DNA from: a virus
DNA length: 64,000 bases
Reading direction: 5' to 3' (one strand)
Virus genome (UHGV): UHGV-0170778
Position 1 is the first letter of the stretch, and each line of letters starts with the position of its first letter. Position numbers and translations under genes: made by a program. The notes under the pieces were generated by a model that was given only the letters and a program-made list of their open reading frames with translations, was not told where the DNA came from and did not search any database. Shown in pieces: positions 11,327 to 46,795 of the stretch.

Positions 11327-11438
11327 CACATTAGATGCGTTGTTGTACAGAGTATGTCTACTATATTGCAATGCAAGACTAAAGTATTCATATATGTACA
11401 TAGAAATGACCAGGTAAATTACCTGTTCTGTATTTTTG

Positions 11439-13091: not shown

Positions 13092-13139
13092 ATAATAAAT
13101 CTCACTTTCAATATTATTATTAAATATAAGGTACATATA

Positions 13140-19041: not shown

Positions 19042-19090
19042 GGGTAGGATAAACTTCTAAGGGTTGCGGGGAGTTGTCCTACCCTTTTAT
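19042..19090 (+). terminator. hairpin plus T-tract between chaperone and tape measure genes
   Basis: gggtagga ... tcctaccc 8-bp stem with a long loop, followed by ttttatatt. Confidence 0.35.
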
Positions 19091-19127
19091 ATTGTATATA
19101 AGAAACAAAACATCTAGGAGTGATAAT

Positions 19128-25374: not shown

Positions 25375-26388
25375 ATGCAATTTTTATCTATATCTGATAA
25401 CACTACATTATCACAATTAAATAGTTTAGTAGGGCATGAAAATACAGATGCTATATTGAATGTTAATGGGTTGAAACGAGCTCCAAAAGTAGGAAAACAA
25501 CTTGTTGATAAAGCTAATAGTATAATAAATTCAGAAGATGTTAAACCTGTAAATTGGCAGAAAAAATTATCTGTCCTTAATACATTTACAGGTGATTCTG
25601 ATATATATGAATATGCATCATTGTTAGGTTCCGATGGTTGGAAAGTATTATCTACTATAAACACATTTCCAAGTATGTTAAGGATACCGGAGTCTATAAC
25701 ACTTCCAGATAACTTCCAGATACTAGGAAATAATCAGCCTGTGTCTAGAGATGTATATGAAAAAGTAAGAAGTTATTTGATAGAAGAGCCTCATGAAATA
25801 GATCCAAAAGTATTCAACACATTTCAAAATGTTTCTAATTCTAGTATACTCGGATATGATGTAGGTAAAAATCCAATTGACTGGTTCAACCTACCTTGGG
25901 GTAAAATATCATTATATTCCTCCATAAATAATGAATATGTAGATTTCCCAGTATATCCAGAAACTATTAGTGATGGTGTAAGCGCTACATATGATACAAT
26001 GCCTGATATGATTTATCAATATGAACCATGGCAAACATATCAAAGTTCAGGCCCTCGCACAATAACATATGAATTTCATATGCATAGAGATATGTGGTCA
26101 GGTAATCATAATGATGGTAGATGTTATGATTTAGTTAATTTCTGTAAAGCTCAGTGTTATGCAGAATACAGTGGTGCTGCAGTGAATACATCTACATGTA
26201 CAATGTATATATCTGGTAAATCTCATCTTTCTGGTATTGTTACACAAGTAGAAGAAGATTGGGGAGGCCCATTGGGGCATGATGGATGGTACTTAGAACT
26301 AACACTTAGAATAACAATGACAGAAGTATCTCAGAAAGCATTGAATTATCAAAGTGTAAGAAATGAAAGGACAACATATTCAATATGA
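25375..26388 (+). CDS. baseplate/tail structural protein, hypothetical
   Basis: 337 aa. Confidence 0.45.
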   Translation: MQFLSISDNTTLSQLNSLVGHENTDAILNVNGLKRAPKVGKQLVDKANSIINSEDVKPVNWQKKLSVLNTFTGDSDIYEYASLLGSDGWKVLSTINTFPSMLRIPESITLPDNFQILGNNQPVSRDVYEKVRSYLIEEPHEIDPKVFNTFQNVSNSSILGYDVGKNPIDWFNLPWGKISLYSSINNEYVDFPVYPETISDGVSATYDTMPDMIYQYEPWQTYQSSGPRTITYEFHMHRDMWSGNHNDGRCYDLVNFCKAQCYAEYSGAAVNTSTCTMYISGKSHLSGIVTQVEEDWGGPLGHDGWYLELTLRITMTEVSQKALNYQSVRNERTTYSI

Positions 26389-26822
26389 GTTATGTAAAGC
26401 CTATATACTATAACACATTAGATCCTTACATTCAAATTGAACATGAAGGTATTCAATATACAACATGCAGGGATTTTAATCATATAAGCAGATACAAAGG
26501 GCTTCGTCAAATAATACACTGTCCAGATACATCAAGATACATATCGCTAGAAACACCTAATTCCATTTCTATAAATGATCTTGATTTCGATTACTATGAG
26601 GTTCCAAAATCAGAAGAAAACAGATTAGATATAATTGCAAATAAATTCTTAGGATCTCCACAATATAGTTGGGTCATAAGTTACATAAACGGTATAGAAG
26701 ACGGTTTTACAGTAAGAGAAGGACAGAAGATAAAGATAATCAGAAGTTTTACAGATCTATTCAATAAAGGTGAGATACTCGCAACAATATCTGCACTTAC
26801 ATTGAATTTAGGGTCTGAGTAA
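26385..26822 (+). CDS. LysM-domain baseplate protein
   Basis: RLDIIANKFLGSPQYSWVISYINGI matches the LysM consensus (xDxxxxIAxxY...W..I...N). Confidence 0.5.
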   Translation: MSYVKPIYYNTLDPYIQIEHEGIQYTTCRDFNHISRYKGLRQIIHCPDTSRYISLETPNSISINDLDFDYYEVPKSEENRLDIIANKFLGSPQYSWVISYINGIEDGFTVREGQKIKIIRSFTDLFNKGEILATISALTLNLGSE

Positions 26823-26845: not shown

Positions 26846-28300
26846 ATGAAGAAACAACCATTTGTTACATTTGTTTTAGCTGGTGTGTCTCTCACAGACT
26901 TCGGCTGGAAAATACCTTCTCCGTTTTCTTCTCTAGAATTAACAAACAGTGAAATATCTTCAATGACAAGCTGGACATTAAATTGTATGGTATCAGGAGA
27001 TTCAGATAAACAAGTAAATGTAGCTTCATTTGAAGCATTGCTTTATAGCGCAGCACAAGCAGCATCTTCTAATCCAAATACAGCTGGTATTCCTGTTTCT
27101 TTCAATTTTGGATGGTTAGATGATGACGGAAATGTAGTCGAGTATCTATCATACCAAGGATTTTCAATAAACTTTGATGTAAGTGTGTCTGGTAGATATA
27201 TGAACTACACCATGAAAGGATACGCTTCTACTGTTGTTCAAAGTAGTATGCCTGTACTTAGAATACCTGCAATAACAGGAATAGTCCAACCGTCTGCTAT
27301 AGTAGAATCTCTTGCAAAGTCAATAAAAGCAACTTCATATTATCAATTAGACATTGATCACAATGACGCTCCAACACTTGTTAATCACAATGCACTTACA
27401 ACATCATTTAACAGATATGTTAGAGGTACATTCGCACCTACAGATGATTATGATAACTTCCCTGGACTTTTACCATTAAGTAAATCATACAGTGGGTCAA
27501 GAGATGCAGCTGGGTTGAAATATCCTTTCAAGAAATTAAGTCAAGTGATGAATAATTTGAAATCAAGTCCTCTTTCTAATTTCTTGAAACAAAGCAATAC
27601 AGATACTACACCACAATGTTCATCATTTTCTTATTGGGTAGATGAACCGACAATGAATAAGCCAGGTGTAATACATTACAAAAGTAATGCTAATCTGTTA
27701 ACAAAACAGAGCGGTCAAGTATTACAATATGGTACAGCAGATACAAATGTATTATCAATTTCAGGTTCATATAATGGTGTAGCATATAATATGACTGATA
27801 TGAATTTCACTCAACTTGGTTTTGCTGTAGATGGTAGCGGTAATACAATTATGAAAGGCGCCGAAGTTGTTAATAGCTGGAGTTCATCTCTTGCAGATAC
27901 ATTCCAGACATCTAACATAATCAATGATGTAAATGCACTTGCATCTCAGTTCAGCGGAGATTTCTCTGTTGAAATTCCAGGTTCACTTAAAGTATATGAA
28001 GTAGCTCAACCTATATCTTTAATCGTACTTTCAGGAAATACATTATCTCCTATATCAGGGATATACAATATTGTATCTGTAACACATAGGCTGTCAAATA
28101 CATTTATCACAACATTAAAGATACAAAGACTTGTAATGAGTTCTGCAAATACAACAGCAAGCTATCAAGGAATATATGTATCTGGTTCAAGCAAATATCC
28201 TAGAAGCTCGTTTACTCCTACATCTAATATAAAATCACCTTATTCTGTAGATCTAGGCATAATGTATCCAACATTCGAGCACATGCAAATTTCGTTATAA
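26846..28300 (+). CDS. baseplate/tail structural protein, hypothetical
   Basis: 484 aa, AAAGGAGATTAGG RBS. Confidence 0.45.
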   Translation: MKKQPFVTFVLAGVSLTDFGWKIPSPFSSLELTNSEISSMTSWTLNCMVSGDSDKQVNVASFEALLYSAAQAASSNPNTAGIPVSFNFGWLDDDGNVVEYLSYQGFSINFDVSVSGRYMNYTMKGYASTVVQSSMPVLRIPAITGIVQPSAIVESLAKSIKATSYYQLDIDHNDAPTLVNHNALTTSFNRYVRGTFAPTDDYDNFPGLLPLSKSYSGSRDAAGLKYPFKKLSQVMNNLKSSPLSNFLKQSNTDTTPQCSSFSYWVDEPTMNKPGVIHYKSNANLLTKQSGQVLQYGTADTNVLSISGSYNGVAYNMTDMNFTQLGFAVDGSGNTIMKGAEVVNSWSSSLADTFQTSNIINDVNALASQFSGDFSVEIPGSLKVYEVAQPISLIVLSGNTLSPISGIYNIVSVTHRLSNTFITTLKIQRLVMSSANTTASYQGIYVSGSSKYPRSSFTPTSNIKSPYSVDLGIMYPTFEHMQISL

Positions 28301-28305: not shown

Positions 28306-28848
28306 ATGGAACAAAATATATTTAAGACCATTAAATATTCACCACTAACAAAATCAAAATTAAATATATTGATACCATATATAGACGACAATATATCTGA
28401 TCTATATAAAAAGTATAAAATATACAACACTGGTGTTTATGCTAATTCAGATTCGACAAAGAATGTTTACAGCGTAGCTTCCGGTGTTGTTCTATTTATA
28501 GTTAAGTCATATGATAATAAATTAGCAATCACAATACAATTTGACGCAGATGTTTGTTTTATATACTCAGGGATAACAAAAACAAACCTTTCAGAGAATG
28601 ATGTAGTAAACCAAGGTCAGTTAATAGGTCAATATTCTGATAAATTTCATTTTCAGTATTTGAAAAGAAACTATATTTCTACTAACAACCAAAATATAAA
28701 TGTTGGGACATCATATATCTATAACATGAGTTATTTTCAACTTGATCCTATTGATTTTGTAGAAGGTAAAAAAGATCTAGATAAAGAAAGCATAATAAGT
28801 GAATCAGAAATAAACCCTCTTTTAGAAACAGATTTCGGTGAAGGATAA
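28306..28848 (+). CDS. hypothetical tail-module protein
   Basis: 180-aa ORF. Confidence 0.4.
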   Translation: MEQNIFKTIKYSPLTKSKLNILIPYIDDNISDLYKKYKIYNTGVYANSDSTKNVYSVASGVVLFIVKSYDNKLAITIQFDADVCFIYSGITKTNLSENDVVNQGQLIGQYSDKFHFQYLKRNYISTNNQNINVGTSYIYNMSYFQLDPIDFVEGKKDLDKESIISESEINPLLETDFGEG

Positions 28849-29986: not shown

Positions 29987-31591
29987 ATGGGAAAGTATAG
30001 ATCACCATTTGGAAGAAAAGTTAGAGTATCAACACCATTTCATAAACCTGGTAGCTGGGCTGCTGGGTTTCATACTGGTGTGGATCTTGTGCCGATAGAT
30101 GGATCCAAACATCCTCCGTTGTACGCGATAGCTAATTGTACTATACTCAATTCGTCTGGTGGAAGTTCTTATGGAAATCATATCATAGCAAGAACAACAG
30201 ACAATCGTGTTTTCTTAATGGCACATATGCGAGACAAACCGCTTGTTAAACCTGGACAAAAAGTGTATGCAGGACAACAAGTAGGGTACATGGGCAATAC
30301 TGGTAACTCTTTTGGTGAGCATTTACATATTGAAGTAGAAACATCAACTAAATGGGCATACAACTCTCATTTAGTTAATCCATTAGATTACATAGATATA
30401 AATAAATTTTCTAATTCAGGTTGCTCTTCAACTTCTATAATCGATACTTTCATAAAAGAAGCTGAATCGCACAAAGGACAACAAGGCGATTGGGTTTGGA
30501 AACGAATGGGTCGTCCTGTAGGAGAAGCATGGTGTGCTTCTTTTATATGTGCGTGTGCGGATAAAGTAGGAAAACTATTAAACTATGTAATATACAACAG
30601 TCCCTCTGTTCGTAGAATGGTAACAGAAGGGCAGAAGAAGAAATATGGGAAGTACTTAAAAGGACCTATGTATGGAAATTCTCCTACACCTCAAAAAGGA
30701 GACTTGATTACATTTGATGAAGGGTTCAATACTTCTGGATATGATCACATAGGGATAGTAATCAAAGTATCTAAATCTAGAGTATTCACAATTGAAGGTA
30801 ATGTAGGTGGAAGAGGTAGTAGATACAATCATGTTGACTATAGAGATTATTCAAGAACAAACAAGATGATATCTGGGTACTATCGTCCGGATTGGTCTAA
30901 GGTAGACGAATCATATACAACAGAGGAAGATGAATCTGTTGTAGAGCTCGCTCCTTTGTATGATCATCTAAATGATAGAAATGATATGACACTTAGAGAG
31001 GTAGGGTACATATATAACAACCAACCTTCTATAAAACAAAGTAATGTAGGGCTTGTTGTTATAAATTATACAGATATGCTTTACAACATTTTTGAAGTTG
31101 TAGCAAGACAAGGTACACAGAATAACAATAATCCACAGTACAGCACAGCAAGTTTATCTGCAGGTCCAAAAAATACAATAAATTTCTTAGTTGACAAAGG
31201 ATTGAATACAGCAGCAGCTGTTGGAATAGCAGCAAATATAAAACACGAAAGTAGTTTCAATACAGCGTCAATAGGTGATAATGGAACATCTTTTGGAATA
31301 TGTCAGTGGCATCTAGATCGTGGGGATAACATGAAAAAGATGGCTGGCAAGAATTGGAAAACAAATTTAACAGGTCAATTAAATTATTTATGGTATGAAT
31401 TAACAAATAGCTACAAATATTCTGTACTTAGTCCTTTGCGTTCTGTTTCTAATACATTATCAGGAGCTAAAAAAGCAGCAGATATATTTGTACGACATTT
31501 TGAAGTTCCTGCAAACATAGACTATCAGTCAGAGCAAAGACAGAAGACTGCAACAAAATATTGGGGCAAATTGAAACAATATCTACAGTAA
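29987..31591 (+). CDS. tail-associated multidomain peptidoglycan hydrolase (M23 peptidase + CHAP + phage-tail-lysozyme-like)
   Basis: M23: HTGVDL ... GNTGNSFGEHLHIEVE. CHAP: GDWVWKRMGRPVGEAWCASFICACA ... DHIGIVIKV. C-terminus: FGICQWHLDRG, as in phage tail lysozyme domains. Confidence 0.7.
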   Translation: MGKYRSPFGRKVRVSTPFHKPGSWAAGFHTGVDLVPIDGSKHPPLYAIANCTILNSSGGSSYGNHIIARTTDNRVFLMAHMRDKPLVKPGQKVYAGQQVGYMGNTGNSFGEHLHIEVETSTKWAYNSHLVNPLDYIDINKFSNSGCSSTSIIDTFIKEAESHKGQQGDWVWKRMGRPVGEAWCASFICACADKVGKLLNYVIYNSPSVRRMVTEGQKKKYGKYLKGPMYGNSPTPQKGDLITFDEGFNTSGYDHIGIVIKVSKSRVFTIEGNVGGRGSRYNHVDYRDYSRTNKMISGYYRPDWSKVDESYTTEEDESVVELAPLYDHLNDRNDMTLREVGYIYNNQPSIKQSNVGLVVINYTDMLYNIFEVVARQGTQNNNNPQYSTASLSAGPKNTINFLVDKGLNTAAAVGIAANIKHESSFNTASIGDNGTSFGICQWHLDRGDNMKKMAGKNWKTNLTGQLNYLWYELTNSYKYSVLSPLRSVSNTLSGAKKAADIFVRHFEVPANIDYQSEQRQKTATKYWGKLKQYLQ

Positions 31592-31902: not shown

Positions 31903-32334
31903 ATGTCAACTTCTTCACTTGCTTTTCCAAATTTAATAGATGTTGCTAGAAACAAAGTATCTGTTTTAGAAAATGACGCATCTGTAGTAAACAGAACCCG
32001 TCTACTTATACTTACAGAGCCGAATGAATTATACAATTCATTAGATTTCGGTGTAGGTCTAAAACAGTATTTGTGGCAATACAATACAAAGAATGTCAAA
32101 GCAATAATTCAAGATAGAATCATTGCACAGCTTAGGAAATATGAACCTTGTTGTGTTCCAGACCAAACAGTATTTTCTGACGGCCTTATTTCTGACAGCG
32201 AATATGACTCAATGTATGTAAAAGAACAAGATAAATTGAAGATGACAGTAGGATTGAAAACATCATATAGCGACAATGTTTCTATTGATCTATCCGATGT
32301 TTATACTTTGATCAACGGAGGTAAATCTAATTGA
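31903..32334 (+). CDS. putative baseplate wedge protein (gp25/W-like)
   Basis: 143 aa. The call rests on size and on position directly before the J-like gene. Confidence 0.35.
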   Translation: MSTSSLAFPNLIDVARNKVSVLENDASVVNRTRLLILTEPNELYNSLDFGVGLKQYLWQYNTKNVKAIIQDRIIAQLRKYEPCCVPDQTVFSDGLISDSEYDSMYVKEQDKLKMTVGLKTSYSDNVSIDLSDVYTLINGGKSN

Positions 32335-34250
32335 AAACATCTGAATATTATCAGAACGGAATGATAAAATATACATCTAGAGATTATGAATCAATAATGG
32401 AGGAGTTTTGGGAACTTGTTCCTAAATTGACAGATCTTTGGAAACCAGAAGCAGATGCAGATCCAGGAGTAGTGCTTGGAAAATATCTAGCTTCTATTGC
32501 AAGTATGCTTGGAGTTAATTTAGATTGGTTAGCAAATGAACTTTTTGCTCCGTCTGTTACTCAGAGAAAAAATGCAGAAAAACTATTCGATTTAATTGGA
32601 TATAACTTAGTGTGGTACACAGCAGCAAAAACCGAAGTTACTTTCAAAAACAACACAACACAAGATTTAACATTAAACTTTTCATTTAATGGGAATAACT
32701 TTGCTACACTTAATGCGTACACAGATATAACACAACAACCTAGAGTAATAACTTATAATATAATTCCATTCACTAATGTGTATGGAGCAAAAGACACAAG
32801 GAGTAAAAGAGAAACAACTACTGATAATGTTGACATCTTCACGAAATCAGATAAAGTTCGTCTTGCTCCTGGAGGAAGTGTAACTCGTGTAGCTGTAGAA
32901 GGTGAGCTAAGGCAAGTAAGTGTTTCTGTAGCAGACATCAAGAGTAACAACTATATAATCAATCTACCATCTCAGCATGTAGATACAACAGCAATTTGGG
33001 TTGTAGCTAAACCTTCGTTATCAGAATCATCAGAATATTTGAAAACACAATGGATACAAGTAGACTCTCCTTCAGAATTCATTGTACCAGAACCTAGATT
33101 TGCAGTAACATATGATTCATATTCAAATGCAAGAATTCAAGTATCTAATTATCTCAATCAGCTTGAAAATTATGATAACAACTGGATAATGGTATATTGG
33201 TTAGATTGTTCAGGTGTTATTGGGAGCGTAGGTAAAAATGTATTAAGCAATTACCTAGAAGCTGCTACAGATGGTGACACAACAGTAAGCGATTCATCTG
33301 GAGACATTACAATTTCTAATCTTTCCAATACTGTAGAACTTCCACACACTCATACAGTAACAGGAAAGAGTCCAGAAACAGCAAAAGAAGCATATTATAA
33401 TAGTAGAAATTATATAAACACATTTGATTCTTTAGTCACTTTACCAGATTTCAATAGATTTTTGAATAGAGAAGCAGGAGTCGATTGTGGATTAGTTATA
33501 GATTGCCAAAAGGCATTAGAAATTAACTTAGCTATCTACAACGATAAGAATCTAACAGATACTCAGAAATCTAAGATGTATATTACAAACAATGATTTCC
33601 CAGCATCTGGAGATACAGTGCTGGATTGGGGCAAAGTGCTTAATTTAGGATTTGATCCTACAGATCCACAGAAATTTGTATTTGCAGCAAATTTCAAAAA
33701 ATATACAGCGATGTGTTATGCTATACATAATGATTTCCAGAATAGCGATTTTGGACAAAGTCAAACATCTAATGCACAAATAAGAAATGTAAGAAAATTC
33801 ATTCAATATAAACCACCTATAATGTTCATTGATAATGTAGTTGCAGATTATAAACCTCTACAAGCAATGACAGTAGAATTAGAATTTGGATATGTTAGAG
33901 TATTTCCTTGGTACTGTGTAGGTACTATAACACCTTATTCTCCTGTTGATAGTATGAATGCAGAGAACATAATCAATAAAGTAAAAGAAGATTTAGCTCT
34001 TTACTTTTCTCCTGCTAATCGACAAATAGGGCAGAAACCTACTTTGATGGAAGTAGTAGATGTAATAGAAAAAGCAGATGATAGAATTCGTCATTTTGAT
34101 CCAGGTGCTCCTGGAACTAAGAATTATGGAATAGTATGGGACAAATGTGATATAGAATACTTCAACCCAATTTCATTTGCTCAATATGAAACATTAGATA
34201 ATTCTACATTGAATATTCGAATCAATCCTGATTATTTGATTGAAAGCTAA
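32331..34250 (+). CDS. putative baseplate J-like protein
   Basis: 639 aa, overlapping start. The call rests on position and size in the baseplate module. Confidence 0.35.
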   Translation: MKTSEYYQNGMIKYTSRDYESIMEEFWELVPKLTDLWKPEADADPGVVLGKYLASIASMLGVNLDWLANELFAPSVTQRKNAEKLFDLIGYNLVWYTAAKTEVTFKNNTTQDLTLNFSFNGNNFATLNAYTDITQQPRVITYNIIPFTNVYGAKDTRSKRETTTDNVDIFTKSDKVRLAPGGSVTRVAVEGELRQVSVSVADIKSNNYIINLPSQHVDTTAIWVVAKPSLSESSEYLKTQWIQVDSPSEFIVPEPRFAVTYDSYSNARIQVSNYLNQLENYDNNWIMVYWLDCSGVIGSVGKNVLSNYLEAATDGDTTVSDSSGDITISNLSNTVELPHTHTVTGKSPETAKEAYYNSRNYINTFDSLVTLPDFNRFLNREAGVDCGLVIDCQKALEINLAIYNDKNLTDTQKSKMYITNNDFPASGDTVLDWGKVLNLGFDPTDPQKFVFAANFKKYTAMCYAIHNDFQNSDFGQSQTSNAQIRNVRKFIQYKPPIMFIDNVVADYKPLQAMTVELEFGYVRVFPWYCVGTITPYSPVDSMNAENIINKVKEDLALYFSPANRQIGQKPTLMEVVDVIEKADDRIRHFDPGAPGTKNYGIVWDKCDIEYFNPISFAQYETLDNSTLNIRINPDYLIES

Positions 34251-34261: not shown

Positions 34262-35500
34262 ATGATGGATTTCAAAGATATATCTGTACCAGAAATATAT
34301 AAATCAAGTCAAGATTTTAGATTCTTCCTTGACTGGTTCAATACTGCATTAACTAAGATAAAATATGACACAGAGAATTTATCTGACATATATGACCCAT
34401 TGAGATGCCCAGACAACTTAGTCTGGGCTCTTGCTGATACTATGGGATACAAATTTGATGATAGATTACCTATATCTTTCAATAGACTTGTGCTTCTTTA
34501 CTTTATGAGCATGATTCGTAACAAAGGAAGTAATGACGGGGTAACACTTGCAGCAGAAATCAATCTAGCCCAATTCAAATTATTGATGAATGCGTCAGGA
34601 TATACAGATGAAAATGGTGATGTTCATCAACCTAAAAACATATTATATAGTAGACTTGATGATACTTCTATACCTGTAAATGCTGTATATGTTACTTCTA
34701 ATGTTGAAGAAGGATATATCGACATAGTATACTTTTCAACAAATATACCAAAAGATGCATGTATCGAATATGTAAGACCATTAGGTATGTATTGTTTCCA
34801 ACATGCAGGAGTTAGAATGGATACTAGAACAAAAATATCTATTGATTCTAGATTAACTAATATAAATGATATACTTACAAATTCTGGAATAGTCAAGATG
34901 AACTTTGGTCCTACCTACTTGACACACTATACAAGAAGAGATTATGCTTCATTGCAGAAAATGGAAGTGATCACAGACAATGATAAACAGCATGCACAGC
35001 CTTCCGAAAAAAGAGATAATACTATGTATCCTGCAAATGAATATGTAAATATTACAGCATTGAAAAAACTTGGAAATCCTGGATATAGAACAATCTATTC
35101 ATTACAACTAAGTAACAATGAAGAAGTGATGAAGGCTTTGATAGATCCAATATTCAGTTTAGGTCAAGGTCCTTTAGATGTAACTGTTGAATATGCTGAT
35201 GATTATCTAAAATATCCATATAAAGATAAATATGCAAATGCAACTCCAAACGAAGATACAGCTAAAGCACATAATTTAAGATATGATTTGGAAAGAGAAA
35301 CTTCTATCACATCAAATGTATACACTGATGATAACCCGAAATTGAGACCAGAAACACAGCCTGCTGTTAATCCTATGATGGCATCTATTGGAGATTCAAT
35401 AGCCTTAAATTCGGATAATACACTTTATACTGATGTAGATAAAACTACTGGAGAAATCAAACAGGTTAGTAGCACAGACAAGAAAGGCAAGAATTCATGA
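34262..35500 (+). CDS. baseplate/tail fibre module protein
   Basis: 412 aa, GGAGGT RBS. Confidence 0.4.
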   Translation: MMDFKDISVPEIYKSSQDFRFFLDWFNTALTKIKYDTENLSDIYDPLRCPDNLVWALADTMGYKFDDRLPISFNRLVLLYFMSMIRNKGSNDGVTLAAEINLAQFKLLMNASGYTDENGDVHQPKNILYSRLDDTSIPVNAVYVTSNVEEGYIDIVYFSTNIPKDACIEYVRPLGMYCFQHAGVRMDTRTKISIDSRLTNINDILTNSGIVKMNFGPTYLTHYTRRDYASLQKMEVITDNDKQHAQPSEKRDNTMYPANEYVNITALKKLGNPGYRTIYSLQLSNNEEVMKALIDPIFSLGQGPLDVTVEYADDYLKYPYKDKYANATPNEDTAKAHNLRYDLERETSITSNVYTDDNPKLRPETQPAVNPMMASIGDSIALNSDNTLYTDVDKTTGEIKQVSSTDKKGKNS

Positions 35501-36018
35501 AGATATATGTAAGATGCTCTAATGATGTAGAAGATTATAGAGACTGTGTTATAGAAAAATTAGACACAGGATATTCTGTATATGACAGTTCTGGAAACGA
35601 ATTAACTTCTGGATTAGAAGATATATATGAAGCAAAAGATTATGTAGATGCATTGAACAAAGACGATATTGATTTCAATAAGTATTTATCTGAAGATGTA
35701 AATACTATCAAAGTATTGTATCGATCATTTTCAGACGACCAAAAGCAAGCATTTGATGAATATATGACATATTATTTGTATGCCGATTTCTTGAGATATT
35801 GTAGCATATCTCTAGATGAGGACAACGCTATTCAGCAAAATGTTTTATTCAAAAAACAACCAGTATCTATTGATTCAATACATAACGCATACAATCAATT
35901 CCTAAAGGTGACTAAACATAAATCGTTCAAATTCTATAAAATACTTGTTAACACTGAAAGAACAGATATGTCTGAAAAGTATAAAATACATTTTGAACAT
36001 AGATATGTACAACCTTAA
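35497..36018 (+). CDS. hypothetical protein
   Basis: 173 aa. Confidence 0.4.
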   Translation: MKIYVRCSNDVEDYRDCVIEKLDTGYSVYDSSGNELTSGLEDIYEAKDYVDALNKDDIDFNKYLSEDVNTIKVLYRSFSDDQKQAFDEYMTYYLYADFLRYCSISLDEDNAIQQNVLFKKQPVSIDSIHNAYNQFLKVTKHKSFKFYKILVNTERTDMSEKYKIHFEHRYVQP

Positions 36019-36046
36019 TTATTTGTAGAGAGAAGGTACTTAGTTT

Positions 36047-36352
36047 ATGGCAAATACACCTAAATCTTTAGATGACATAGTTCCTATTGCTCAAGGACCT
36101 GCTACTGCAATAGCGCCTGGATCAGAAGAAGAAAAGAAAGACCAACAAACAGGATATACTAATCCTAATCTTCACAGACGAATTGTCGAAGGAGAAGATG
36201 TTTCTAATGAAGATAAATCATTTGAATTATCTGGATATTCTGGATCTTCTATATCTGTTTCATATAAATTAGGGGTACACGGAACTAATTCATATAGAAC
36301 AACAGATTATGTAGTACATGATGAAAATTCTACTACATCTGAAATTCCGTAA
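36047..36352 (+). CDS. hypothetical protein
   Basis: 101 aa. Confidence 0.4.
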   Translation: MANTPKSLDDIVPIAQGPATAIAPGSEEEKKDQQTGYTNPNLHRRIVEGEDVSNEDKSFELSGYSGSSISVSYKLGVHGTNSYRTTDYVVHDENSTTSEIP

Positions 36353-36370
36353 TGTCTAAGTAGGTATATT

Positions 36371-36610
36371 ATGAACAATACAGGTCAGAAACATAAGAAA
36401 TATGTTTTCAATATTTATCAATATGGTAGATTGATTGATACATTAGTGTTCAATGATTTTGGTGCAGCAAAACAATACTATTATAGAACATGGGCTCATT
36501 ATGATGTAGCTACTGTACCAATAGTAGATGGAAAAGAGCTAACTCTAACAGAAGCTGATAGATTATTTGAATACGCTAGATATTTATGGGAGTATAAAAG
36601 TGTCCAATAG
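36371..36610 (+). CDS. hypothetical protein
   Basis: 79 aa. Confidence 0.4.
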   Translation: MNNTGQKHKKYVFNIYQYGRLIDTLVFNDFGAAKQYYYRTWAHYDVATVPIVDGKELTLTEADRLFEYARYLWEYKSVQ

Positions 36611-37733
36611 TTTAACACCTAACAAAAATTTAGGTATCAAACACAATGTAACATTTAGAGTAATAGATGAACGAACTGGAAATGTTGTTCAAACATATCA
36701 AGGGCATAATTCAGCAACAAACTCATTGTTGTATGGAATAGCTCATTATCTAAAAGGTGATGGAGTTCTTAATCAAGGTGCTCATATGCTAAGTTCATTT
36801 GTTCCTAGATATATAAGTTTAGGCACAATGGGACTTTCTAGTCAAGAAGAAGACGAAAATCATTTGCCTGTAGGTATTGGTGGTACCCCTAATCCAGATG
36901 ACCCAAATGATGAAGAAAACAGATTTGTTAATTACATGTCACATAGACCTGGATACGGTGCTGACGGATATGACATAAATCTAAATAATGGTCGAGATGT
37001 TTTTGGATTAGGTAAACCGTTTTCAAAAACTGATAATGTAATATCTGGTACAACAGAAACATTGAAACTAGGAGATATAAACAACGATGGAGTAGTAGAT
37101 GTGAATGATCTGCTTCTTCTAGTTGATTATATGTGTGATAAAGTAACATTATCTGAAAAACAATTGAAATGTGCAGACATTGATAAGGACGGACATATTG
37201 ATTGTGAAGATGTTCAATTGCTTCGCCAAGCTATTGATAATAAAACAGATCTAGGTACAATTGAATATACAAACACAACTTATCAAACAATAAATTGTGA
37301 GTTGATATCTAATTCATTTCCTCGTCAGCTCATTTCGTATAGAGAAATAATACCAGAAACAAAAGCAGAACAGCCTCAAACAATTGATGTTGTATACAGT
37401 GCAATGATATCAACAGGGGCACTATCACAATTCAGAGATCCTGGTAAAGATTATATATTTATAACAGAAGCAGGTTTATGGTCAAGTGATGAATATACTG
37501 ATGGTGCAGATAACGGACTTTTAGCTGGATATCGGCTTGTTCCTACAAATGATAACTATTGGGATATGACCGAACCGTCAAATAGAATGCAGCTTAAGCG
37601 TTCAATCCTGAGAGTAGGAATAAATCAAGTAGTTCAAGTTATTTGGAAAATACAAATAGGGTCAATTGATGATATACTTGATTACTATCATGTAAATACA
37701 ATATCTGATACAGGAAGTGAAACAGATGTATAA
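36567..37733 (+). CDS. tail fibre/receptor-binding candidate with a dockerin type I module
   Basis: GDINNDGVVDVNDLLLLVDYM ... ADIDKDGHIDCEDVQLLRQAI is the duplicated 22-residue calcium-binding dockerin repeat (DxNxDGxVxxxD + helix), at nt about 37071-37245. The true start may be the GTG at about 36600, which has a GGAG RBS. Confidence 0.6.
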   Translation: MNTLDIYGSIKVSNSLTPNKNLGIKHNVTFRVIDERTGNVVQTYQGHNSATNSLLYGIAHYLKGDGVLNQGAHMLSSFVPRYISLGTMGLSSQEEDENHLPVGIGGTPNPDDPNDEENRFVNYMSHRPGYGADGYDINLNNGRDVFGLGKPFSKTDNVISGTTETLKLGDINNDGVVDVNDLLLLVDYMCDKVTLSEKQLKCADIDKDGHIDCEDVQLLRQAIDNKTDLGTIEYTNTTYQTINCELISNSFPRQLISYREIIPETKAEQPQTIDVVYSAMISTGALSQFRDPGKDYIFITEAGLWSSDEYTDGADNGLLAGYRLVPTNDNYWDMTEPSNRMQLKRSILRVGINQVVQVIWKIQIGSIDDILDYYHVNTISDTGSETDV

Positions 37734-37971
37734 CGATGATTTCAGTTATTACAGAGACAAACTAACAACAATGAGTAATTACATATTGGACTGTGCAGGA
37801 TGGATGGATAGATTAGCAACATATGAGGATATCTATCAATCCGATATTGACGCATTAGAAGATATTGTACAAGACATTGTTGATGGCGTTAGTCGTCTAG
37901 AAAATGAAATAAAAGCAATACGAAAATTTAGTTTAAGGAGAAGTCTCGATGAAACGAAAAGTAACGATTAA
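37717..37971 (+). CDS. hypothetical protein
   Basis: 84 aa. Confidence 0.4.
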   Translation: MKQMYNDDFSYYRDKLTTMSNYILDCAGWMDRLATYEDIYQSDIDALEDIVQDIVDGVSRLENEIKAIRKFSLRRSLDETKSND

Positions 37972-38296
37972 AGCAAATAACAGCTCAGATAGATTAGAAA
38001 ATCCAGCATATTCAAAATTAAATTCTGAGTGCCAGTCAGCTGGGTACAGACTTGATTATGCTGTATGGATTAAAAATAGACTGTTTCTGAGCATAATTCC
38101 TGTAGCTAATTACGCAACGGAGCTTACCTTAGATAGGAAAGAACCTAACACTGTCAGAGCACAGACAACTGCATATGGTTCACTATCTCTGGACAAATAC
38201 AAAGATTTTGCAGACCAAGTAGCTAAAACTGCTCATCTACTTAGAGTTTTAGAAGAGTTTGATTTTGACAAATTGCCTCATGAGGACGAGGAGTAA
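37949..38296 (+). CDS. hypothetical protein
   Basis: 115 aa. Confidence 0.4.
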   Translation: MKRKVTIKANNSSDRLENPAYSKLNSECQSAGYRLDYAVWIKNRLFLSIIPVANYATELTLDRKEPNTVRAQTTAYGSLSLDKYKDFADQVAKTAHLLRVLEEFDFDKLPHEDEE

Positions 38297-38299
38297 TAA

Positions 38300-38659
38300 A
38301 TGGAACAATACATTTTTACACCATCTAGTGTTCTAGATTTGTTAACACAGATAGATGAACTTAAAGATTATGATATTGGTCTAACAGAGACATTTGACAA
38401 TCAGTTTAGGTTGACTATTGGAGATTCTGTATATGATATAAATTCAGAAAATACTGATATTGTAAGTATAGATGACTCTGCGTTAAACAACATTGTTGGA
38501 CTGAATGAAGATACTTATGAAGATCTTCAAGAGTCTGGAAGTGTTGAAATTGAAAACAAAGATGTAGATATAACATCTGGCATCATAAAAGAAGCACTTA
38601 AAACTTTGCTTGTAGGCGGTATGGTTCGCTTAACAGGTAAACTCCTAAGGAACAAATGA
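38300..38659 (+). CDS. hypothetical acidic protein
   Basis: 119 aa. Confidence 0.4.
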   Translation: MEQYIFTPSSVLDLLTQIDELKDYDIGLTETFDNQFRLTIGDSVYDINSENTDIVSIDDSALNNIVGLNEDTYEDLQESGSVEIENKDVDITSGIIKEALKTLLVGGMVRLTGKLLRNK

Positions 38660-38674: not shown

Positions 38675-40000
38675 ATGGCAAAGAATAATTCTATATTAGG
38701 CACATTCAGCGGTGAATGCGCCGATTCTGCTATTACTAACTTGAATGGGATGGACATTAGCAGAGAAGTATTTGAAAAACTATTTGAGTCTGATGAATAT
38801 AAAAAAGCATTAGAGTGTAAACAGTACATCGGATTTTTAGGACATCCAGAAGACCCTGATTGTCAAGATTACAAAGATGCTTGCATTACAATGACAGATT
38901 GCAGAATTGATGATGACGGCAAAGTTTATGGTGATTTTGATCTAATTGACACACCTACAGGACGAGTTGTAAAGGCATTTATCGACGCAGGTGTAAAGTT
39001 TGGCATTTCTATCAGAGGTGCAGGCGACTTAATTGGAAATTCAGTAGACCCAGATACTTTTGTATTTAGAGGCTTTGACTTAGTTTCATTTCCTGCTTAT
39101 CCAGACGCTATTCCTACATTTACAGAAATAGCAGCTTCAACAGATATGCAAAAACGAAAGAAATATCAGAAAGTATGCAAGTCACTTAAAGATAACCTAT
39201 CTTCTATTACAAGTTCCTCTGCAATAGATGTAATGAAGTCTCAATTTGCTCCACAGTCTGATGAATATAAATCACTTCAAGATAGAGAAGATGAACTTTC
39301 TAAAAATTCTGTAGTTGATATAGATGACGATATGGAAGAAATCTATGCAGAAAAAGTTCGTGACTTAGTAGATGCTTATGTAGAAGAGCACGAAAAAGCA
39401 GAGTCTGCTCTATCCGAACTTGATAGAGTTAGAAAAAGATCAAAGGATGAGCTTGATCAGTCTCAGAGAGTATCTAACCGCATAAAAAGAATTGCAAGTT
39501 CTCAGCTTGCTTCTGTTAAACAAGAAGTTGTAAAAGCAAATAAACAGATAGATTCTTTGAAATCTAAAATAATTGCAACCAGAAATGCCAACCTTATATA
39601 CGAACAAGAGATAGAGAAACAGAAGAAAAAGATTTCTGAACAGACACAGATTATTTCTAGTTTGAAGGCTTATCGCTCTGAAACCGTCTTAGCGAAAAAA
39701 GAACTTCAGTCTAGAACATCTAACTTAGATGCAGAGAATAAGAAGTTGATGTCAGAAAAAGCATCTCTTGAAAAGGTAATCGCAAGTTACCAAGACGCAT
39801 TTGCTAGCTTATATGCGTTAAACATCGGTGCTAATCTAAATGATTCTGTTACAGTAACTGCTTCAACAAGTGTACAAGAGTTAAAATCTATGATAAACAA
39901 ATGTTCACATGGTAAGCAGATTTCGAAATCAAATTCAGTATATGCTTCAGCTTCAATAGAAGATGTAGCAGATAATGACGAAAATTTGATTTGTCTATGA
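38675..40000 (+). CDS. putative prohead protease / scaffolding fusion protein
   Basis: The N-terminal approximately 150-aa domain (LGHPED ... GVKFGISIRGAGD) resembles the His/Ser region of HK97-type prohead proteases. The C-terminal approximately 250 aa is charged coiled coil (scaffold-like). It sits immediately upstream of the capsid candidate. Confidence 0.45.
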   Translation: MAKNNSILGTFSGECADSAITNLNGMDISREVFEKLFESDEYKKALECKQYIGFLGHPEDPDCQDYKDACITMTDCRIDDDGKVYGDFDLIDTPTGRVVKAFIDAGVKFGISIRGAGDLIGNSVDPDTFVFRGFDLVSFPAYPDAIPTFTEIAASTDMQKRKKYQKVCKSLKDNLSSITSSSAIDVMKSQFAPQSDEYKSLQDREDELSKNSVVDIDDDMEEIYAEKVRDLVDAYVEEHEKAESALSELDRVRKRSKDELDQSQRVSNRIKRIASSQLASVKQEVVKANKQIDSLKSKIIATRNANLIYEQEIEKQKKKISEQTQIISSLKAYRSETVLAKKELQSRTSNLDAENKKLMSEKASLEKVIASYQDAFASLYALNIGANLNDSVTVTASTSVQELKSMINKCSHGKQISKSNSVYASASIEDVADNDENLICL

Positions 40001-40047: not shown

Positions 40048-41511
40048 ATGGCTATCAAAAGAACAAGCTATGCGCCTACACAGCGCACTCGTAGACCTGT
40101 TACTGCCAGCCAGAGCATTACCTCCGGTGCTACTCGTCGTCAGTCAGCTCCTTCTAAGGTGATGGCTAACATGCAGCAGCTTTCTCCGGAGAAGCGCGCC
40201 TTTGCTCGTCAGCTGATTTCTAATACTCAGCGTCAGTCAAAGATTATGGCAGCTACAAACACATCAAACATCATGGCTAAGCCCGAGTTCATGGACCTTC
40301 TGCCTCTGTTCGTTCAGAAGCTGATTGTTGCTGATGTATTCGGTACTGTAGCAATGAGATCTCGTCAGCAGATTATCCCTTATTTCAAGGTAACTGCTGA
40401 GAACACAAAGGGCGAGACTCAGGCTAACACAATCCTGAACAGCCCGATGGTAAACCGTCAGGGTAGAGATGCAAATTATTCTAGCAATATTGTTAAGAAT
40501 GAGATTGTTGCTTCTGCTACTGGTTCTTTCCAGACTGCAAACCTGATGTATACTCCAGTACTTCCTGGTTCTGTTACTGTTTCTGCTAATCTTGCAGCTG
40601 GTGTTAAGAAGTATTTCGATGACCGTACTGGTAAATTAGTAGATGCTGAGGGTAGAGACAAAGGCACTATTGAATATGCAACTGGTAAAATCAACTTGAC
40701 TACTCCTGAAACACTTGCCTCTGGTGATTCTGTTACCGCTACTTACATGTATGATAATGAGACTGTAGGTCCTCATCCGACTTCCGACACTACTCTTGAC
40801 CATGGTCAGTATGGTGCTCGTATGGGCAAGTTGTCACTTCAGTTAGATGAATTCGACATGAAAGCTACTGCTCATCAGCTTGCTTGCTATTGGAGTGTTT
40901 ACTCTGCATTTGCTGCTCAGAATGAGTATGGTGCTTCTGTTGCTGATATGGCTCGTGAAGCTGCTATGTCTGAGATCACTGCTGAGATTAACACAGAAGG
41001 CTTCCAGCTGTTGAAGAATGCTTCAATGTATCAGCCTCAGTTCAACTGGGATGCAGCTCCTGTACTGTCTGGCTCTGTTGTTCCTTCTGATTACTTGAAC
41101 ATGTTCAAGCTGAAGCTGAACCAGGCTGCTGCTAGTGTATATCAGGCAACTAACCTTGCTCGTCCGAACAGACTTGTAGTTGGTACTAACGCTGCTGAGT
41201 ACATGGCAATGATTAACGGCTTCCAGGCAGATAGCATTGAAGATACCGTTGGTCCTTATCATTTCGGTAAACTTGACCAGTTCGAGATCTATGTTGATCC
41301 GTCTTATGATCCCAATGAGTGGGTTATGGCTTGTAAATCTAATGATATTCGTCGTAACTCAGCATTGTTCGGTGAATATATGCCGCTTACATCTACCGAT
41401 GCAATTGGTCTTGCAGATGCTTCTGTTCAGCAGGGTATCGTGTCAATGTACGGTATGAAGGTGGTCAATGCGGCCAGCGTAGTTAGCGGTAAAATTATCG
41501 GCACTTTCTAA
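40048..41511 (+). CDS. putative major capsid protein
   Basis: 487 aa, position after protease/scaffold. GC content and codon usage (cgt, ctg, gct) are markedly shifted versus surrounding genes, as expected for a very highly expressed gene. A terminator follows. Confidence 0.5.
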   Translation: MAIKRTSYAPTQRTRRPVTASQSITSGATRRQSAPSKVMANMQQLSPEKRAFARQLISNTQRQSKIMAATNTSNIMAKPEFMDLLPLFVQKLIVADVFGTVAMRSRQQIIPYFKVTAENTKGETQANTILNSPMVNRQGRDANYSSNIVKNEIVASATGSFQTANLMYTPVLPGSVTVSANLAAGVKKYFDDRTGKLVDAEGRDKGTIEYATGKINLTTPETLASGDSVTATYMYDNETVGPHPTSDTTLDHGQYGARMGKLSLQLDEFDMKATAHQLACYWSVYSAFAAQNEYGASVADMAREAAMSEITAEINTEGFQLLKNASMYQPQFNWDAAPVLSGSVVPSDYLNMFKLKLNQAAASVYQATNLARPNRLVVGTNAAEYMAMINGFQADSIEDTVGPYHFGKLDQFEIYVDPSYDPNEWVMACKSNDIRRNSALFGEYMPLTSTDAIGLADASVQQGIVSMYGMKVVNAASVVSGKIIGTF

Positions 41512-41598: not shown

Positions 41599-41666
41599 TG
41601 TAAATTTCGTTAAATAACCTTTATTAAATCGTTATAATAGTTGTAATGGTAGTAAAGGTGGTTTAT

Positions 41667-43280
41667 ATGACTAAAATATGTGCAGAATGCGGGAAAGAAT
41701 TTGAAGGAAAAGGAAAACAAAAGTATTGTAATAGAAAACACTATAGAAAATGTGTTATATGCGGGCAGAATTTTGAAATTTCGCGAGATCAACTTCAAAA
41801 TGGAGACCAAAGGAGAACCTGTTCTAAAAAATGCACTATAGAGCTTAGAAAACAAACTAATACTAAGAAGTATGGAGGCGTAGCTCCGGCGTGTTCAGAA
41901 TCTGTTAGAGAAAAGATGCAATCTACTACCTTAGAAAGATATGGAGTGAAGCATGCAGCGCAAGCTGATATTTTCAAAGAGAAGTCAAAGCAAACAGCTC
42001 TATCTAAGTATGGTGTTGAATATTATGCAAAAACAGACGAAAGCAAACAAAAACTAACGGAACGATGGAGAGACGAAGAATATAAACGCAAAGTTGTTTC
42101 TAAAATAGCAGCTACAAATCTTGAGAGATATGGGTTTAGAAGTTCTATGCAGTCATTAGATGTTCAATTACGAAATGTAACATCTAAGATGACAGATTCA
42201 TCTAAATATCAAACCTTTCTGAAATTCAAAAAGAATCCAAGAGAAGTTATAGAAAGTTTAGAATTAGACCATAAACCTACTTTATATGAATTAACTTCAT
42301 ATATAGGAGTAAACGAAAGCACTGTCGGTGTATATATACATTTGAATAATTGCGAAGATTTGATTTCCCATAGATCTTCTATTATGGAAACTGATGTTGT
42401 TGCTTTTTTGAAAGAATTAGATCCGGAAATTGTCATATCTAGATGTGATAGAACTATCATTTCTCCATATGAAATAGACATCTACTTACCTGAATACAAA
42501 ATAGGGATAGAATGTAACCCAACAGCTACACATAATGTAGATATAAATGTGTTCGACAATAGTAAACCTACAATGTCCATAAGTTACCATCAAATGAAAA
42601 CTAACATGTGTGAAGATAAGGGTGTACGATTGATTCACATATTTGGATATGAATGGAAATATAAACAAAAAATATTAAAATCTATAATCAGCAATGCTTT
42701 ATGTAAGAACAAAAATAGAATATATGCAAGAAAATGCGAGATACGAAAAGTAGACAGTTATGAATGTTCTAAATTTCTAAATGAAAATCATCGACAAGGG
42801 AAAGTAGGTTCGTCTGTAAGATTAGGGCTGTATTTTGAAAATAAACTAGTTTCTATAATGACATTTGGAAAATTAAGAAAAACTATAGGCTCAAATGGAG
42901 ACGGGTATGAACTGTTAAGATTCTGTTCCACTCTAAATACATGTGTTGTTGGTGGTGCAAGTAAACTGTTTAATTATTTCATAAAAACATACAGTCCAAA
43001 TTATATTAGATCTTTTTCAGATAGAGCACATACAACAGGAAATATTTACAAATTATTAGGTTTTGTAGAAGTTAATAGAAGCACTCCTGGATATTGTTGG
43101 GTGAATATCAATACAGAAAAAGCATATCATAGAATGAATGCACAGAAACATAATATAAAGAAATTTCTAAATGATGATAGCATTGATCTATCTAAGTCAG
43201 AACGAGAAATAATGACAGAACATAGATTCGCTAGAGTATTTGATTCAGGTACAATTACATGGGAATGGCATTCTATATAG
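41667..43280 (+). CDS. homing-endonuclease-like protein, paralogue C
   Basis: CAECGKEF..CVICGQNF..CSKKC zinc ribbon, 4-5 KYGV-type repeats (ERYGVKHAAQ, SKYGVEYYAK, ERYGFRSSMQ), IGIECNPTATHN...YHQMKT...GVRLIHIFGYEW core, and C-terminal IYARKCEIRKVD...NHRQG...VVGGASKLF. Start moved to MTKICAECG, which has an AAAGGTGG RBS. Confidence 0.6.
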   Translation: MTKICAECGKEFEGKGKQKYCNRKHYRKCVICGQNFEISRDQLQNGDQRRTCSKKCTIELRKQTNTKKYGGVAPACSESVREKMQSTTLERYGVKHAAQADIFKEKSKQTALSKYGVEYYAKTDESKQKLTERWRDEEYKRKVVSKIAATNLERYGFRSSMQSLDVQLRNVTSKMTDSSKYQTFLKFKKNPREVIESLELDHKPTLYELTSYIGVNESTVGVYIHLNNCEDLISHRSSIMETDVVAFLKELDPEIVISRCDRTIISPYEIDIYLPEYKIGIECNPTATHNVDINVFDNSKPTMSISYHQMKTNMCEDKGVRLIHIFGYEWKYKQKILKSIISNALCKNKNRIYARKCEIRKVDSYECSKFLNENHRQGKVGSSVRLGLYFENKLVSIMTFGKLRKTIGSNGDGYELLRFCSTLNTCVVGGASKLFNYFIKTYSPNYIRSFSDRAHTTGNIYKLLGFVEVNRSTPGYCWVNINTEKAYHRMNAQKHNIKKFLNDDSIDLSKSEREIMTEHRFARVFDSGTITWEWHSI

Positions 43281-43836: not shown

Positions 43837-44427
43837 ATGAATGTAATACTTAACAACATGATGAAGGTAGAACTTAATATACCTAGAGATCATCTGAATG
43901 CTAAAAATACAATACATGAATTGTTAGCCAACTATACTGAATTCCATTGCGATGAATCTGTAGAAACTGCAAGTCTCAGTAAAGTGTATTTTCAATCATG
44001 TCCGGAGTGTTCTAAACGATATATTCGTTCTGCTGTTTTAGAGCCTATTAACATTGGTGGAACATCATGGTATATGTATGTAAGTATAGAAGAGGAAACT
44101 AAATACAAAGATTTTGATTTTGAATACTTTTCATTGAAGGATATTATTTCCTCTGCAAATAATTCTAAGCTGCCTCTTAGACTGATAGGCTATAATTTGC
44201 AAGGTATGGACTTTGAAGGTATGGATTTGTCTTGTTGGGCACTTATCGGATGTAATTTGAAGAATGCTAAATTCAACAACTGTAATTTACAAGATGTAGT
44301 GTTTACTGGCTGTGATATGACTCGTACAGATATGTATGGAGCTAATACAGAAACTATTAAAGTAAACATGTGCAATTTAGACGAACTAATTCACGACCAC
44401 AATTTAGAAATAAAACAAACGATCTAA
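43837..44427 (+). CDS. pentapeptide-repeat-containing protein
   Basis: The C-terminal half carries about 11 pentapeptides: LIGYN LQGMD FEGMD LSCWA LIGCN LKNAK FNNCN LQDVV FTGCD MTRTD MYGAN. Confidence 0.55.
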   Translation: MNVILNNMMKVELNIPRDHLNAKNTIHELLANYTEFHCDESVETASLSKVYFQSCPECSKRYIRSAVLEPINIGGTSWYMYVSIEEETKYKDFDFEYFSLKDIISSANNSKLPLRLIGYNLQGMDFEGMDLSCWALIGCNLKNAKFNNCNLQDVVFTGCDMTRTDMYGANTETIKVNMCNLDELIHDHNLEIKQTI

Positions 44428-46084: not shown

Positions 46085-46795
46085 ATGAACATGGAAGAGA
46101 TTGTATCTCAAGTTAGTTTCATGTTAGGCCTACCTACTACTGAAAATAATACTAAACAGCAGATAGAGATGGGTGTAATGATTGCATTCAGAGAGTTGAA
46201 GCGATACATGAGAACACCTACTGACAAAACTGTCCCATATTCTACAAGAATAGATCTATCTGCTGTTGGTATTAAAACTCAGAAAGTGCTCAGTGTATTT
46301 GCAGCACGACCTAGAATAGGCTTAACGATGAGTTCTATTGACAGCGGAAATGTATTCCAAACAGCTGCCGCTGTAAATGTGTATAGCCAGATAGGTAACA
46401 CAGCGTCAATAAATATAGACCCGATAGTTACAGAAATGGCGATGGCACAAGTTAGAAATACACTAACTACTGATTTTCAATGGACTTATGACAGGAATAA
46501 TGATGTTGTATATGTACCTCATAGAGATCCAGTACCTTCTGAGGTAACTATTCGATATGTTCCTGAATATTCAGATGTATCTGAAATCAATTCTCCATCT
46601 TGGATTGATTATCTGATTAGAATGTCAGAAGCAAATGTTAAAAAGTCTTGGGGTAGGGCTAGATCTAAATATACTATAGAAGGATCTAATGTCACCTTAG
46701 ATGGCCAGACCCTATTAGACGAAGCAAATGCTGAACTTGAACAAATAAGATCAGAGTTAGAATCAAGTAGAAACAAGATGGTTGTTATAAACTAA
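46085..46795 (+). CDS. hypothetical (head-module?) protein
   Basis: 236 aa, GAGGAGG RBS. Confidence 0.4.
   Translation: MNMEEIVSQVSFMLGLPTTENNTKQQIEMGVMIAFRELKRYMRTPTDKTVPYSTRIDLSAVGIKTQKVLSVFAARPRIGLTMSSIDSGNVFQTAAAVNVYSQIGNTASINIDPIVTEMAMAQVRNTLTTDFQWTYDRNNDVVYVPHRDPVPSEVTIRYVPEYSDVSEINSPSWIDYLIRMSEANVKKSWGRARSKYTIEGSNVTLDGQTLLDEANAELEQIRSELESSRNKMVVIN

Follow-up and report, generated by a model that had tools for sequence, protein, structure and literature searches.

A dockerin in the exchangeable loop of a probable phage virion protein: a candidate adhesin for cellulosome-bearing hosts

Introduction

What does a dockerin do in a gene that lies between the baseplate and the capsid genes of a phage? 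We addressed this question in the UHGV virus genome UHGV-0170778, of which we analysed a stretch of 64,000 nucleotides (nt), hereafter the window (about 34% G+C, without tRNA genes). The phage is an uncultivated, contractile-tailed myovirus of roughly 140 kb from gut or rumen. The gene in question (36600-37733, plus strand) has a GTG start and encodes a protein of 377 amino acids (aa), in which a conserved scaffold carries a dockerin. An earlier reading of the same DNA, made from its letters and open reading frames (ORFs) and called here the sequence-only reading, had described a duplicated dockerin at 37071-37245 within a tail fibre or baseplate-distal protein, and had taken it as a sign of a cellulolytic or ruminococcal/clostridial host to which the phage adsorbs, or is tethered, through cohesins. 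In the following, residues are numbered from the GTG codon at 36600 of the 377-aa protein.

Identity and conservation of the module

The module (residues 158-215; 37071-37244, plus strand) matched the hidden Markov model (HMM) of the Pfam family PF00404, Dockerin_1, over profile positions 1-56 of 57 (E 3.9e-10), with a score of 40.2 bits against a curated cut-off of 22.9. The precomputed PF00404 label was present on nearly all of the top 120 homologues, and EF-hand families matched the region below the Pfam threshold only. When a profile of 32 homologues was compared with solved structures, dockerins were the sole matches of note and EF-hand proteins came far behind. The matched structures included the double dockerin of Clostridium thermocellum (8x39, E 3e-14), 4fl4, 2ccl and 1ohz, as well as the dockerins of Amy16 and Amy10 of Ruminococcus bromii. 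The predicted fold of the module was a three-helix dockerin that superposed on solved dockerins at 1.2 Å, with 34% identity.

The module consists of two tandem repeats, each about 22 residues long and with a 12-residue Ca2+ loop that has Asp or Asn at positions 1, 3, 5, 9 and 12. Repeat 1 (residues 159-180; 37074-37139, plus strand) contains the Ca2+ loop DINNDGVVDVND (residues 159-170) followed by helix 1, and repeat 2 (residues 193-214; 37176-37241, plus strand) contains the Ca2+ loop DIDKDGHIDCED (residues 193-204) followed by helix 3. Conservation was counted in the alignment of 26 representatives, all less than 85% identical. Residues G158, D159, N161, D163, G164 and D170 of loop 1 were invariant and D167 was present in 24 of the 26, while loop 2 retained D193 (22/26), D197 (24/26), G198 (25/26) and D204 (24/26).

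The most variable positions of the whole module were positions 10 and 11 of repeat 1 (residues 168-169; 3.27 and 2.94 bits). Repeat 2 was variable at its position 11 as well (2.38 bits), and its position 10 is a conserved cysteine, Cys202 (22/26). The phage studied here carries V168-N169 in repeat 1 and C202-E203 in repeat 2. We take positions 10-11, together with 17-18, to be the main specificity positions of the type I complex of C. thermocellum. Fixed Ca2+ ligands combined with variable recognition positions are what is expected of a working dockerin whose partner differs from phage to phage, and the dockerin thus appears to be functional. A second cysteine, Cys179, was conserved in 21 of the 26 representatives. 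Cys179 (37134-37136, after helix 1) and Cys202 (37203-37205, position 10 of Ca2+ loop 2) might form a disulfide, which to our knowledge would be unusual within a dockerin.

The peptide quoted in the sequence-only reading is the exact plus-strand translation of 37071-37245, and the opposite strand has stops. The full-length Pfam match, the matches to solved dockerins and the conserved Ca2+ ligands agree with its duplicated dockerin, and we regard it as practically certain that the module is a real one. The 'LL/VQ' recognition pairs named in the same reading do exist, but they lie at repeat positions 13-14 and not at the presumed specificity positions.

The gene and its product

The mechanical ORF spans 36567-37733 and opens with a TTG codon at 36567, although the GTG codon at 36600 is almost certainly the true start. 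This assignment is made because a ribosome-binding site read directly from the sequence (GGGAG, 36588-36592, plus strand) stands before the GTG with a 7-nt spacer, and because the equivalent GTG is the start in a homologue that is 94% identical (P0001) and in the gene call of a related locus (L002). No site comparable to this GGGAG was found before the TTG. At the N-terminus of the protein (MSNSLTPNKNLGIKHNV) no signal peptide is visible, so the dockerin would exit the cell solely via lysis, for example within the virion, and this fits a virion component. No enzymatic domain was detected in the protein by Pfam.

The alignment of homologues showed two highly conserved halves with the dockerin between them. 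The N-terminal half (residues 1-138; 36600-37013, plus strand) has many invariant columns in two alignments and ends in an invariant GLG, and the C-terminal half (residues 233-352; 37296-37655, plus strand), which runs from CELIS to WKIQ, also has invariant columns in both. The mean column entropy of the scaffold was 0.90 bits. The residues in between (139-232; 37014-37295, plus strand) form an insertion hot-spot in the family alignment, which we call the cargo loop and inside which the dockerin lies. Two beta strands of the AlphaFold2 (AF2) secondary structure would form a stalk around the module: an ascending strand (residues 152-156; 37053-37067, plus strand) and a descending strand (residues 220-224; 37257-37271, plus strand), the latter inside the motif LGTxEY, in which L218, G219 and Y223 are conserved.

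We also observed a second variable site in the scaffold, at 36870-36920 (about residues 92-108), after a conserved P.GIG motif. About 25 aa are inserted at this site in one homologue (P0013), two further relatives (P0190, P0193) are also concerned, and some representatives have about 70-80 extra residues before profile position ~95.

A scaffold with an exchangeable loop

We took 88 related loci from genome and viral collections and compared the orthologues between the invariant GLG and CELIS motifs. This single loop hosts six or more classes of cargo across the relatives. In 47 distinct sequences it was empty (9-20 aa), and the dockerin cargo is dispensable, being absent from most relatives. 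Dockerin-containing loops of 93-99 aa were found in this phage and its closer relatives. Loops of 51-65 aa carried a module resembling carbohydrate-binding module (CBM) families 5/12, for which the Pfam CBM_5_12 threshold was reached by 2 of the 7 inserts tested and another 4 of the 7 matched below it. The remaining loops carried an unrelated module of about 100 aa (98-158 aa, with 158 aa in one phage), cysteine-rich modules (52-59 aa) or other modules (82-154 aa). Many relatives additionally had C-terminal extensions made of Big_2 immunoglobulin (Ig)-like domains, YadA_head repeats or seven DUF285 repeats, and the longest of the extended proteins had 2,333 aa in the loci that we took and 2,708 aa among the library representatives. 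All the cargo that could be identified consists of binding or adhesion modules, so the protein behaves as a display scaffold on the exterior of the particle. A dockerin placed in such a swappable loop would show the behaviour expected of a ligand-binding module in a receptor-binding or adhesion protein.

When a neighbour-joining tree was computed from the scaffold columns only, without bootstrap, the dockerin-bearing members fell in three places, with very short internal branches. The shared flanks and shared cysteines of the dockerin inserts suggest that they have a common origin. The related element found in Ruminococcus callidus (L007) was observed to contain tandem scaffold paralogues, at 9569-10546 (325 aa) and 10561-12099 (512 aa); the 512-aa paralogue has a C-terminal extension of 229 aa, and the loop holds no cargo in either copy. 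The same pair of paralogues was present in the IMG/VR contigs L076 and L081.

The protein family is common in metagenomes (1,091 clusters at 90% identity, many of them on contigs of 138-146 kb that resemble whole genomes), and it is small and restricted to this phage group: 1.84 billion proteins yielded 145 representatives. The scaffold had no PHROG or Pfam match, whether the insert was kept or removed, and PHROG searches of the dockerin protein and of ten dockerin-free or extended relatives returned no informative family. In all sources the scaffold family is unnamed and labelled 'hypothetical protein'. Sequence homology to described tail-fibre or receptor-binding families was searched for and not found; thus, the scaffold fits no described fibre family.

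Genomic setting and host group

Upstream of the dockerin gene, the window encodes a tail sheath (2032-4026), two gp25-like proteins (26385-26822 and 31903-32334), tail-associated lysins of the M23, CHAP and lysozyme types (28306-28848 and 29987-31591), a gp6/J-like baseplate wedge protein (32331-34250, plus strand; phrog_219, E 4.5e-4), a P2 gpI-like protein (34262-35500, plus strand; weak match to Tail_P2_I, E 0.09) and three small ORFs (35497-36610). Three more small ORFs (37717-38659) follow the gene, and after them come a prohead protease/scaffold gene (38675-40000, plus strand; Peptidase_S77, phrog_207), a Gp23-type major capsid protein gene (40048-41511, plus strand; phrog_138, PF07068) and a head-tail adaptor gene (46085-46795).

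The gene for the dockerin-free or dockerin-bearing scaffold was present in all 54 related loci with full flanks. The J-like and gpI-like genes adjoined it in 50 of the 54 (13/13 dockerin-bearing and 37/41 dockerin-free loci), and the order baseplate, scaffold gene, protease and capsid was kept, including in L001, L002 and L007. We take it that phage P2 has its fibre gene H at the matching position, after the J and gpI genes. A cultured relative was sought by tblastn of the dockerin protein against 50,697 GenBank phage records, without a match. The capsid protein was only 26-29% identical to those of Bacillus, Streptococcus and Listeria myoviruses, which were rejected as a positional guide, as their gene order differs and gives no clue.

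The best non-dockerin candidates for structural neighbours of the scaffold were all parts of tails or baseplates and none came from capsids, with 109-128 residues aligned. We infer that the protein belongs to the virion and sits on its tail; the tail position is based on the location of the gene after the J-like and gpI-like genes and on the very long extensions of the relatives. From these data, the dockerin is probably a binding module exposed on the virion, and we favour the tail over the head for the protein with only slightly less confidence.

Regarding the host, the complete chromosome of R. callidus ATCC 27760 (NZ_CP186925.1) harbours one relative (L007; element at around 1.47-1.50 Mb, scaffold pair at about 1.48 Mb), which has the same gene order as the window, with 62% identity in the capsid protein and 60% in the J-like protein. 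Further relatives occur as contigs of whole phages in the bins of a yak-rumen Ruminococcus, of an Oscillospiraceae metagenome-assembled genome (MAG) and of several Clostridia MAGs, and two were found in Bacteroides-type bins, where they are probably mis-binned. R. callidus has an elaborate cellulosome, with 76 dockerin-bearing enzymes and eight scaffoldins that include a wall-anchored one (PMC13463774). The M23, CHAP and lysozyme tail lysins also fit a Gram-positive host. The G+C content (33.7% for the window, 38.7% for the R. callidus element) was rejected as a host clue, being too indirect.

These data bear on two further parts of the sequence-only reading. Its tail fibre or baseplate-distal protein stands in so far as the gene belongs to a phage structural module and directly follows the J-like and gpI-like genes of the baseplate, but its tail location is no more than probable and the search for homology to fibre families gave no match. 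Its ruminococcal or clostridial host is supported by the R. callidus relative and the MAG bins at the level of the phage group, and does not extend to the dockerin-bearing members, since the R. callidus copies have no dockerin.

Ligand and role of the dockerin

We propose that the protein is an adhesion or receptor-binding protein exposed on the virion of a phage whose group infects Ruminococcus-like Clostridia. The conserved scaffold of about 270 aa would probably be anchored at the periphery of the baseplate, with a surface loop as the cargo site, from which a two-stranded beta stalk would hold out a complete dockerin with two Ca2+ loops. The dockerin would then bind, in a Ca2+-dependent manner, a cohesin of a host cell-surface scaffoldin, and it is by this binding that the phage would first attach, probably reversibly, to cellulosome- or amylosome-bearing cells. 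Variation at the recognition positions of the dockerin would tune the choice of cohesin by each phage. The cohesin as ligand and adsorption as the purpose of the binding are both steps that we infer, and for the chain as a whole, from baseplate-peripheral adhesin to primary attachment through a host scaffoldin, we see the chances as about even. More tentatively, we put forward that this gut and rumen phage group uses the host cohesin-dockerin system as a receptor and that changes at positions 10-11 re-target the choice of cohesin, a generalization to which we give somewhat less credence.

Several observations count against this proposal. The absence of the dockerin from both R. callidus scaffold copies means that the sole firm host link belongs to a dockerin-free relative, and all loci binned with bacterial genomes lack the dockerin. 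Tail and head genes meet at this gene, which is directly upstream of the head genes, and a head or neck location is possible. The window contains a separate fibre candidate (61022-63847), and the main role in receptor binding may fall to a protein other than the one with the dockerin. Modules of the dockerin type are also present in organisms from which no cohesins are known, and the ligand could be of another kind. Finally, Pfam detected no phage cohesin in essentially every plus-strand ORF of at least 60 aa in the window (some searched as concatenated pseudo-proteins); we rate this negative result as weak because many ruminococcal cohesins escape HMM detection (PMC13463774).

The boundary position and the second fibre candidate, whose N-terminus has a sub-threshold tail-tip motif, would both suit a protein that tethers the virion and does not act as the infection receptor. 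Such a decoration, possibly on the head or neck, would hold virions on cellulosome- or amylosome-coated cells, fibre or starch particles and raise the encounter rate, as proposed for Ig-like decoration domains in mucus, while infection would proceed through another receptor-binding protein. The Big_2 Ig-like domains of some relatives match the PHROG 'structural protein with Ig domain', which is in the head and packaging category, and most relatives dispense with the cargo, both of which agree with a tether; the gene also directly precedes the protease and capsid genes. However, the candidate structural neighbours of the scaffold all come from tails and baseplates and none from capsids, and extensions of 2,300-2,700 aa are, in our judgement, more fibre-like than expected of a capsid decoration. 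We therefore consider a tether to be unlikely, although it is the alternative that survives best.

A dockerin fold that has no cohesin as its ligand is a little less probable still. In that case the module would be a Ca2+-stabilised unit that binds some other surface target or merely stiffens the loop. The weak matches to EF-hand families and the lack of a detectable cohesin in the window go in this direction, as does the second repeat, which is degenerate and not recognised by Pfam in some clades (P0109, P0111, P0189). On the other hand, the profile is matched over its full length, the predicted fold is highly similar to that of cohesin-binding dockerins, and hypervariable positions 10-11 next to invariant Ca2+ ligands fit a protein-recognition surface. 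In addition, surface cohesins are abundant in the related host group (PMC13463774).

The cohesin could also be a phage protein, so that the dockerin would plug into a cohesin-like domain of another virion component and thereby attach a fibre or accessory subunit during assembly. The weakness of the Pfam negative leaves room for this, given how often ruminococcal cohesins escape HMMs (PMC13463774), and several large ORFs nearby have no annotation (19074-22106, 22161-24800 and 26846-28300). Nevertheless, no Pfam cohesin was found in the window ORFs scanned, no ORF within 10 kb on either side of the gene was specific to dockerin-bearing loci, most relatives lack the dockerin while keeping the same neighbours, and the recognition positions differ strongly between close relatives, all of which makes a role in assembly quite improbable. 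The least probable explanation is a non-virion factor that is released at lysis and loads onto host scaffoldins (for cohesin block, phage exclusion or cellulosome remodelling): dockerins are normally borne by secreted enzymes, but the gene lies inside a conserved structural operon and is present in 54/54 full-flank related loci, the product has neither a signal peptide nor an enzymatic domain, and its candidate fold neighbours are tail parts.

Implications

If attachment through a host cohesin is the role of the dockerin, it would be the first demonstrated case of viral adsorption via cohesin-dockerin recognition, and the protein would constitute a natural display scaffold that accepts dockerins, CBMs and other binding modules. 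Cellulosomes and amylosomes, to which ruminococci owe their keystone role in the degradation of fibre and resistant starch, would then be a liability as well as an asset, doubling as phage receptors and tying fibre degradation to phage predation in gut and rumen. Such a link would help to explain the rapid divergence of ruminococcal cohesins and dockerins. It would also allow hosts to be assigned to an abundant group of uncultivated phages, by pairing phage dockerins with the cohesins that they bind. The cargo loop tolerates from 0 to about 160 inserted residues and could serve for phage re-targeting. Should the ligand be a different one, the locus would still show clearly that a phage structural protein has captured a module of host surface assembly.

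Other features of the window

The fibre candidate at 61022-63847 (plus strand) is an ORF of 941 aa with an N-terminal 'Phage tail tip domain' motif that scored below the threshold (22.5 against 23.7 bits). It contains three internal repeats (..NY.TLD....L.DG.YL..D..) and, far from the baseplate genes, encodes a second possible fibre or receptor-binding protein. Another repetitive product is encoded at 5826-6692 (plus strand), between the tail tube region and accessory genes: its 288 aa consist almost wholly of the short repeats '..S.V.A.D.S.V.A..' and match phrog_15773 (unknown function), and a beta-helical protein of structural or fibre-like type is a possibility.

At least a dozen small and medium ORFs open with a shared motif, MK[IRK][YLM][IV]K[CAS][ST], such as MKIYVRCSND, MKIYIKCNSS, MKRYIKSATQ and MKRLIKASTQ; they start at 4136, 5037, 5474, 15561, 17535, 35497, 47277, 54156, 55458, 56162, 56983 and 59228. 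The motif resembles a common leader and, by analogy with the internal proteins of T4, may be a capsid-targeting or protease-cleaved propeptide. Three paralogous homing-endonuclease genes (phrog_3339 / HNH) were found in the structural region, at 11439-13136 (minus strand), 13849-15408 (plus strand) and 41646-43280 (plus strand). One of these lies directly downstream of the major capsid gene, where L002 has a DUF7487 protein.

The ORF at 50012-51628 (plus strand) encodes 538 aa with a lipoprotein-type signal (…CCFFGC), Peptidase_C39_2 and SH3_3 domains and two long lysine-rich C-terminal repeats, and its product is possibly exported as a cell-wall hydrolase or lysis factor. Finally, pentapeptide-repeat proteins are encoded at 16269-17099 (fused to DUF5758) and at 43837-44427 (plus strand), and a small ORF at 17119-17307 (plus strand) matches the C-terminal domain of DarA ('defence against restriction'); these genes among the structural ones are possible anti-defence genes.

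Comparison with known systems

The family is already deposited, with the machine label 'Dockerin type 1', in uncultivated viral genomes. In particular, A0A8S5UCJ3 of Siphoviridae sp. ctgN495, which was named automatically, is an orthologue of 400 aa with 54% identity and the same architecture. In the searchable literature we found no published analysis of the architecture, cargo loop or function of the family and no proposal of dockerin-based phage adsorption, and mentions of dockerins in phage structural proteins were incidental or unrelated.

With type I dockerins (PF00404; C. thermocellum Xyn10B, PDB 1OHZ/2CCL), the phage module shares the two 22-residue repeats, each made of an EF-hand-like 12-residue Ca2+ loop and a helix. 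Those dockerins, however, stand at the end of secreted enzymes, whereas the phage module is an internal insertion in a structural protein without a signal peptide, and it has conserved cysteines at residues 179 and 202. At positions 10-11 the phage module has V-N and C-E, against what we take to be Ser-Thr in C. thermocellum.

The closest candidates for structural counterparts of the scaffold are tail accessory and adaptor proteins solved by cryo-electron microscopy. The best neighbours were a phi812 baseplate protein (9euf_b), the fibre-tail adaptor of GP4 (8jou_a), a baseplate wedge subunit of KP1 (9f4a_A4) and a baseplate hub domain of HFTV1 (9h4p_BD).

Carbohydrate-binding modules decorate baseplate and tail proteins of Gram-positive phages. 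The family studied here resembles modular phage receptor-binding and adhesion proteins in that a conserved anchor is combined with exchangeable cargo (CBM5/12, Ig-like, YadA-head and the leucine-rich-repeat-type DUF285) and in that it is likewise encoded in the baseplate region. It differs from them in that its scaffold belongs to no named family and that the cargo of this phage is not a glycan-binding module but a protein-protein docking module of a host surface-assembly system. What is new, then, is a putative modular phage adhesin that carries, in the swappable loop of an unnamed scaffold, cargo from the very system with which its hosts would assemble their surface.

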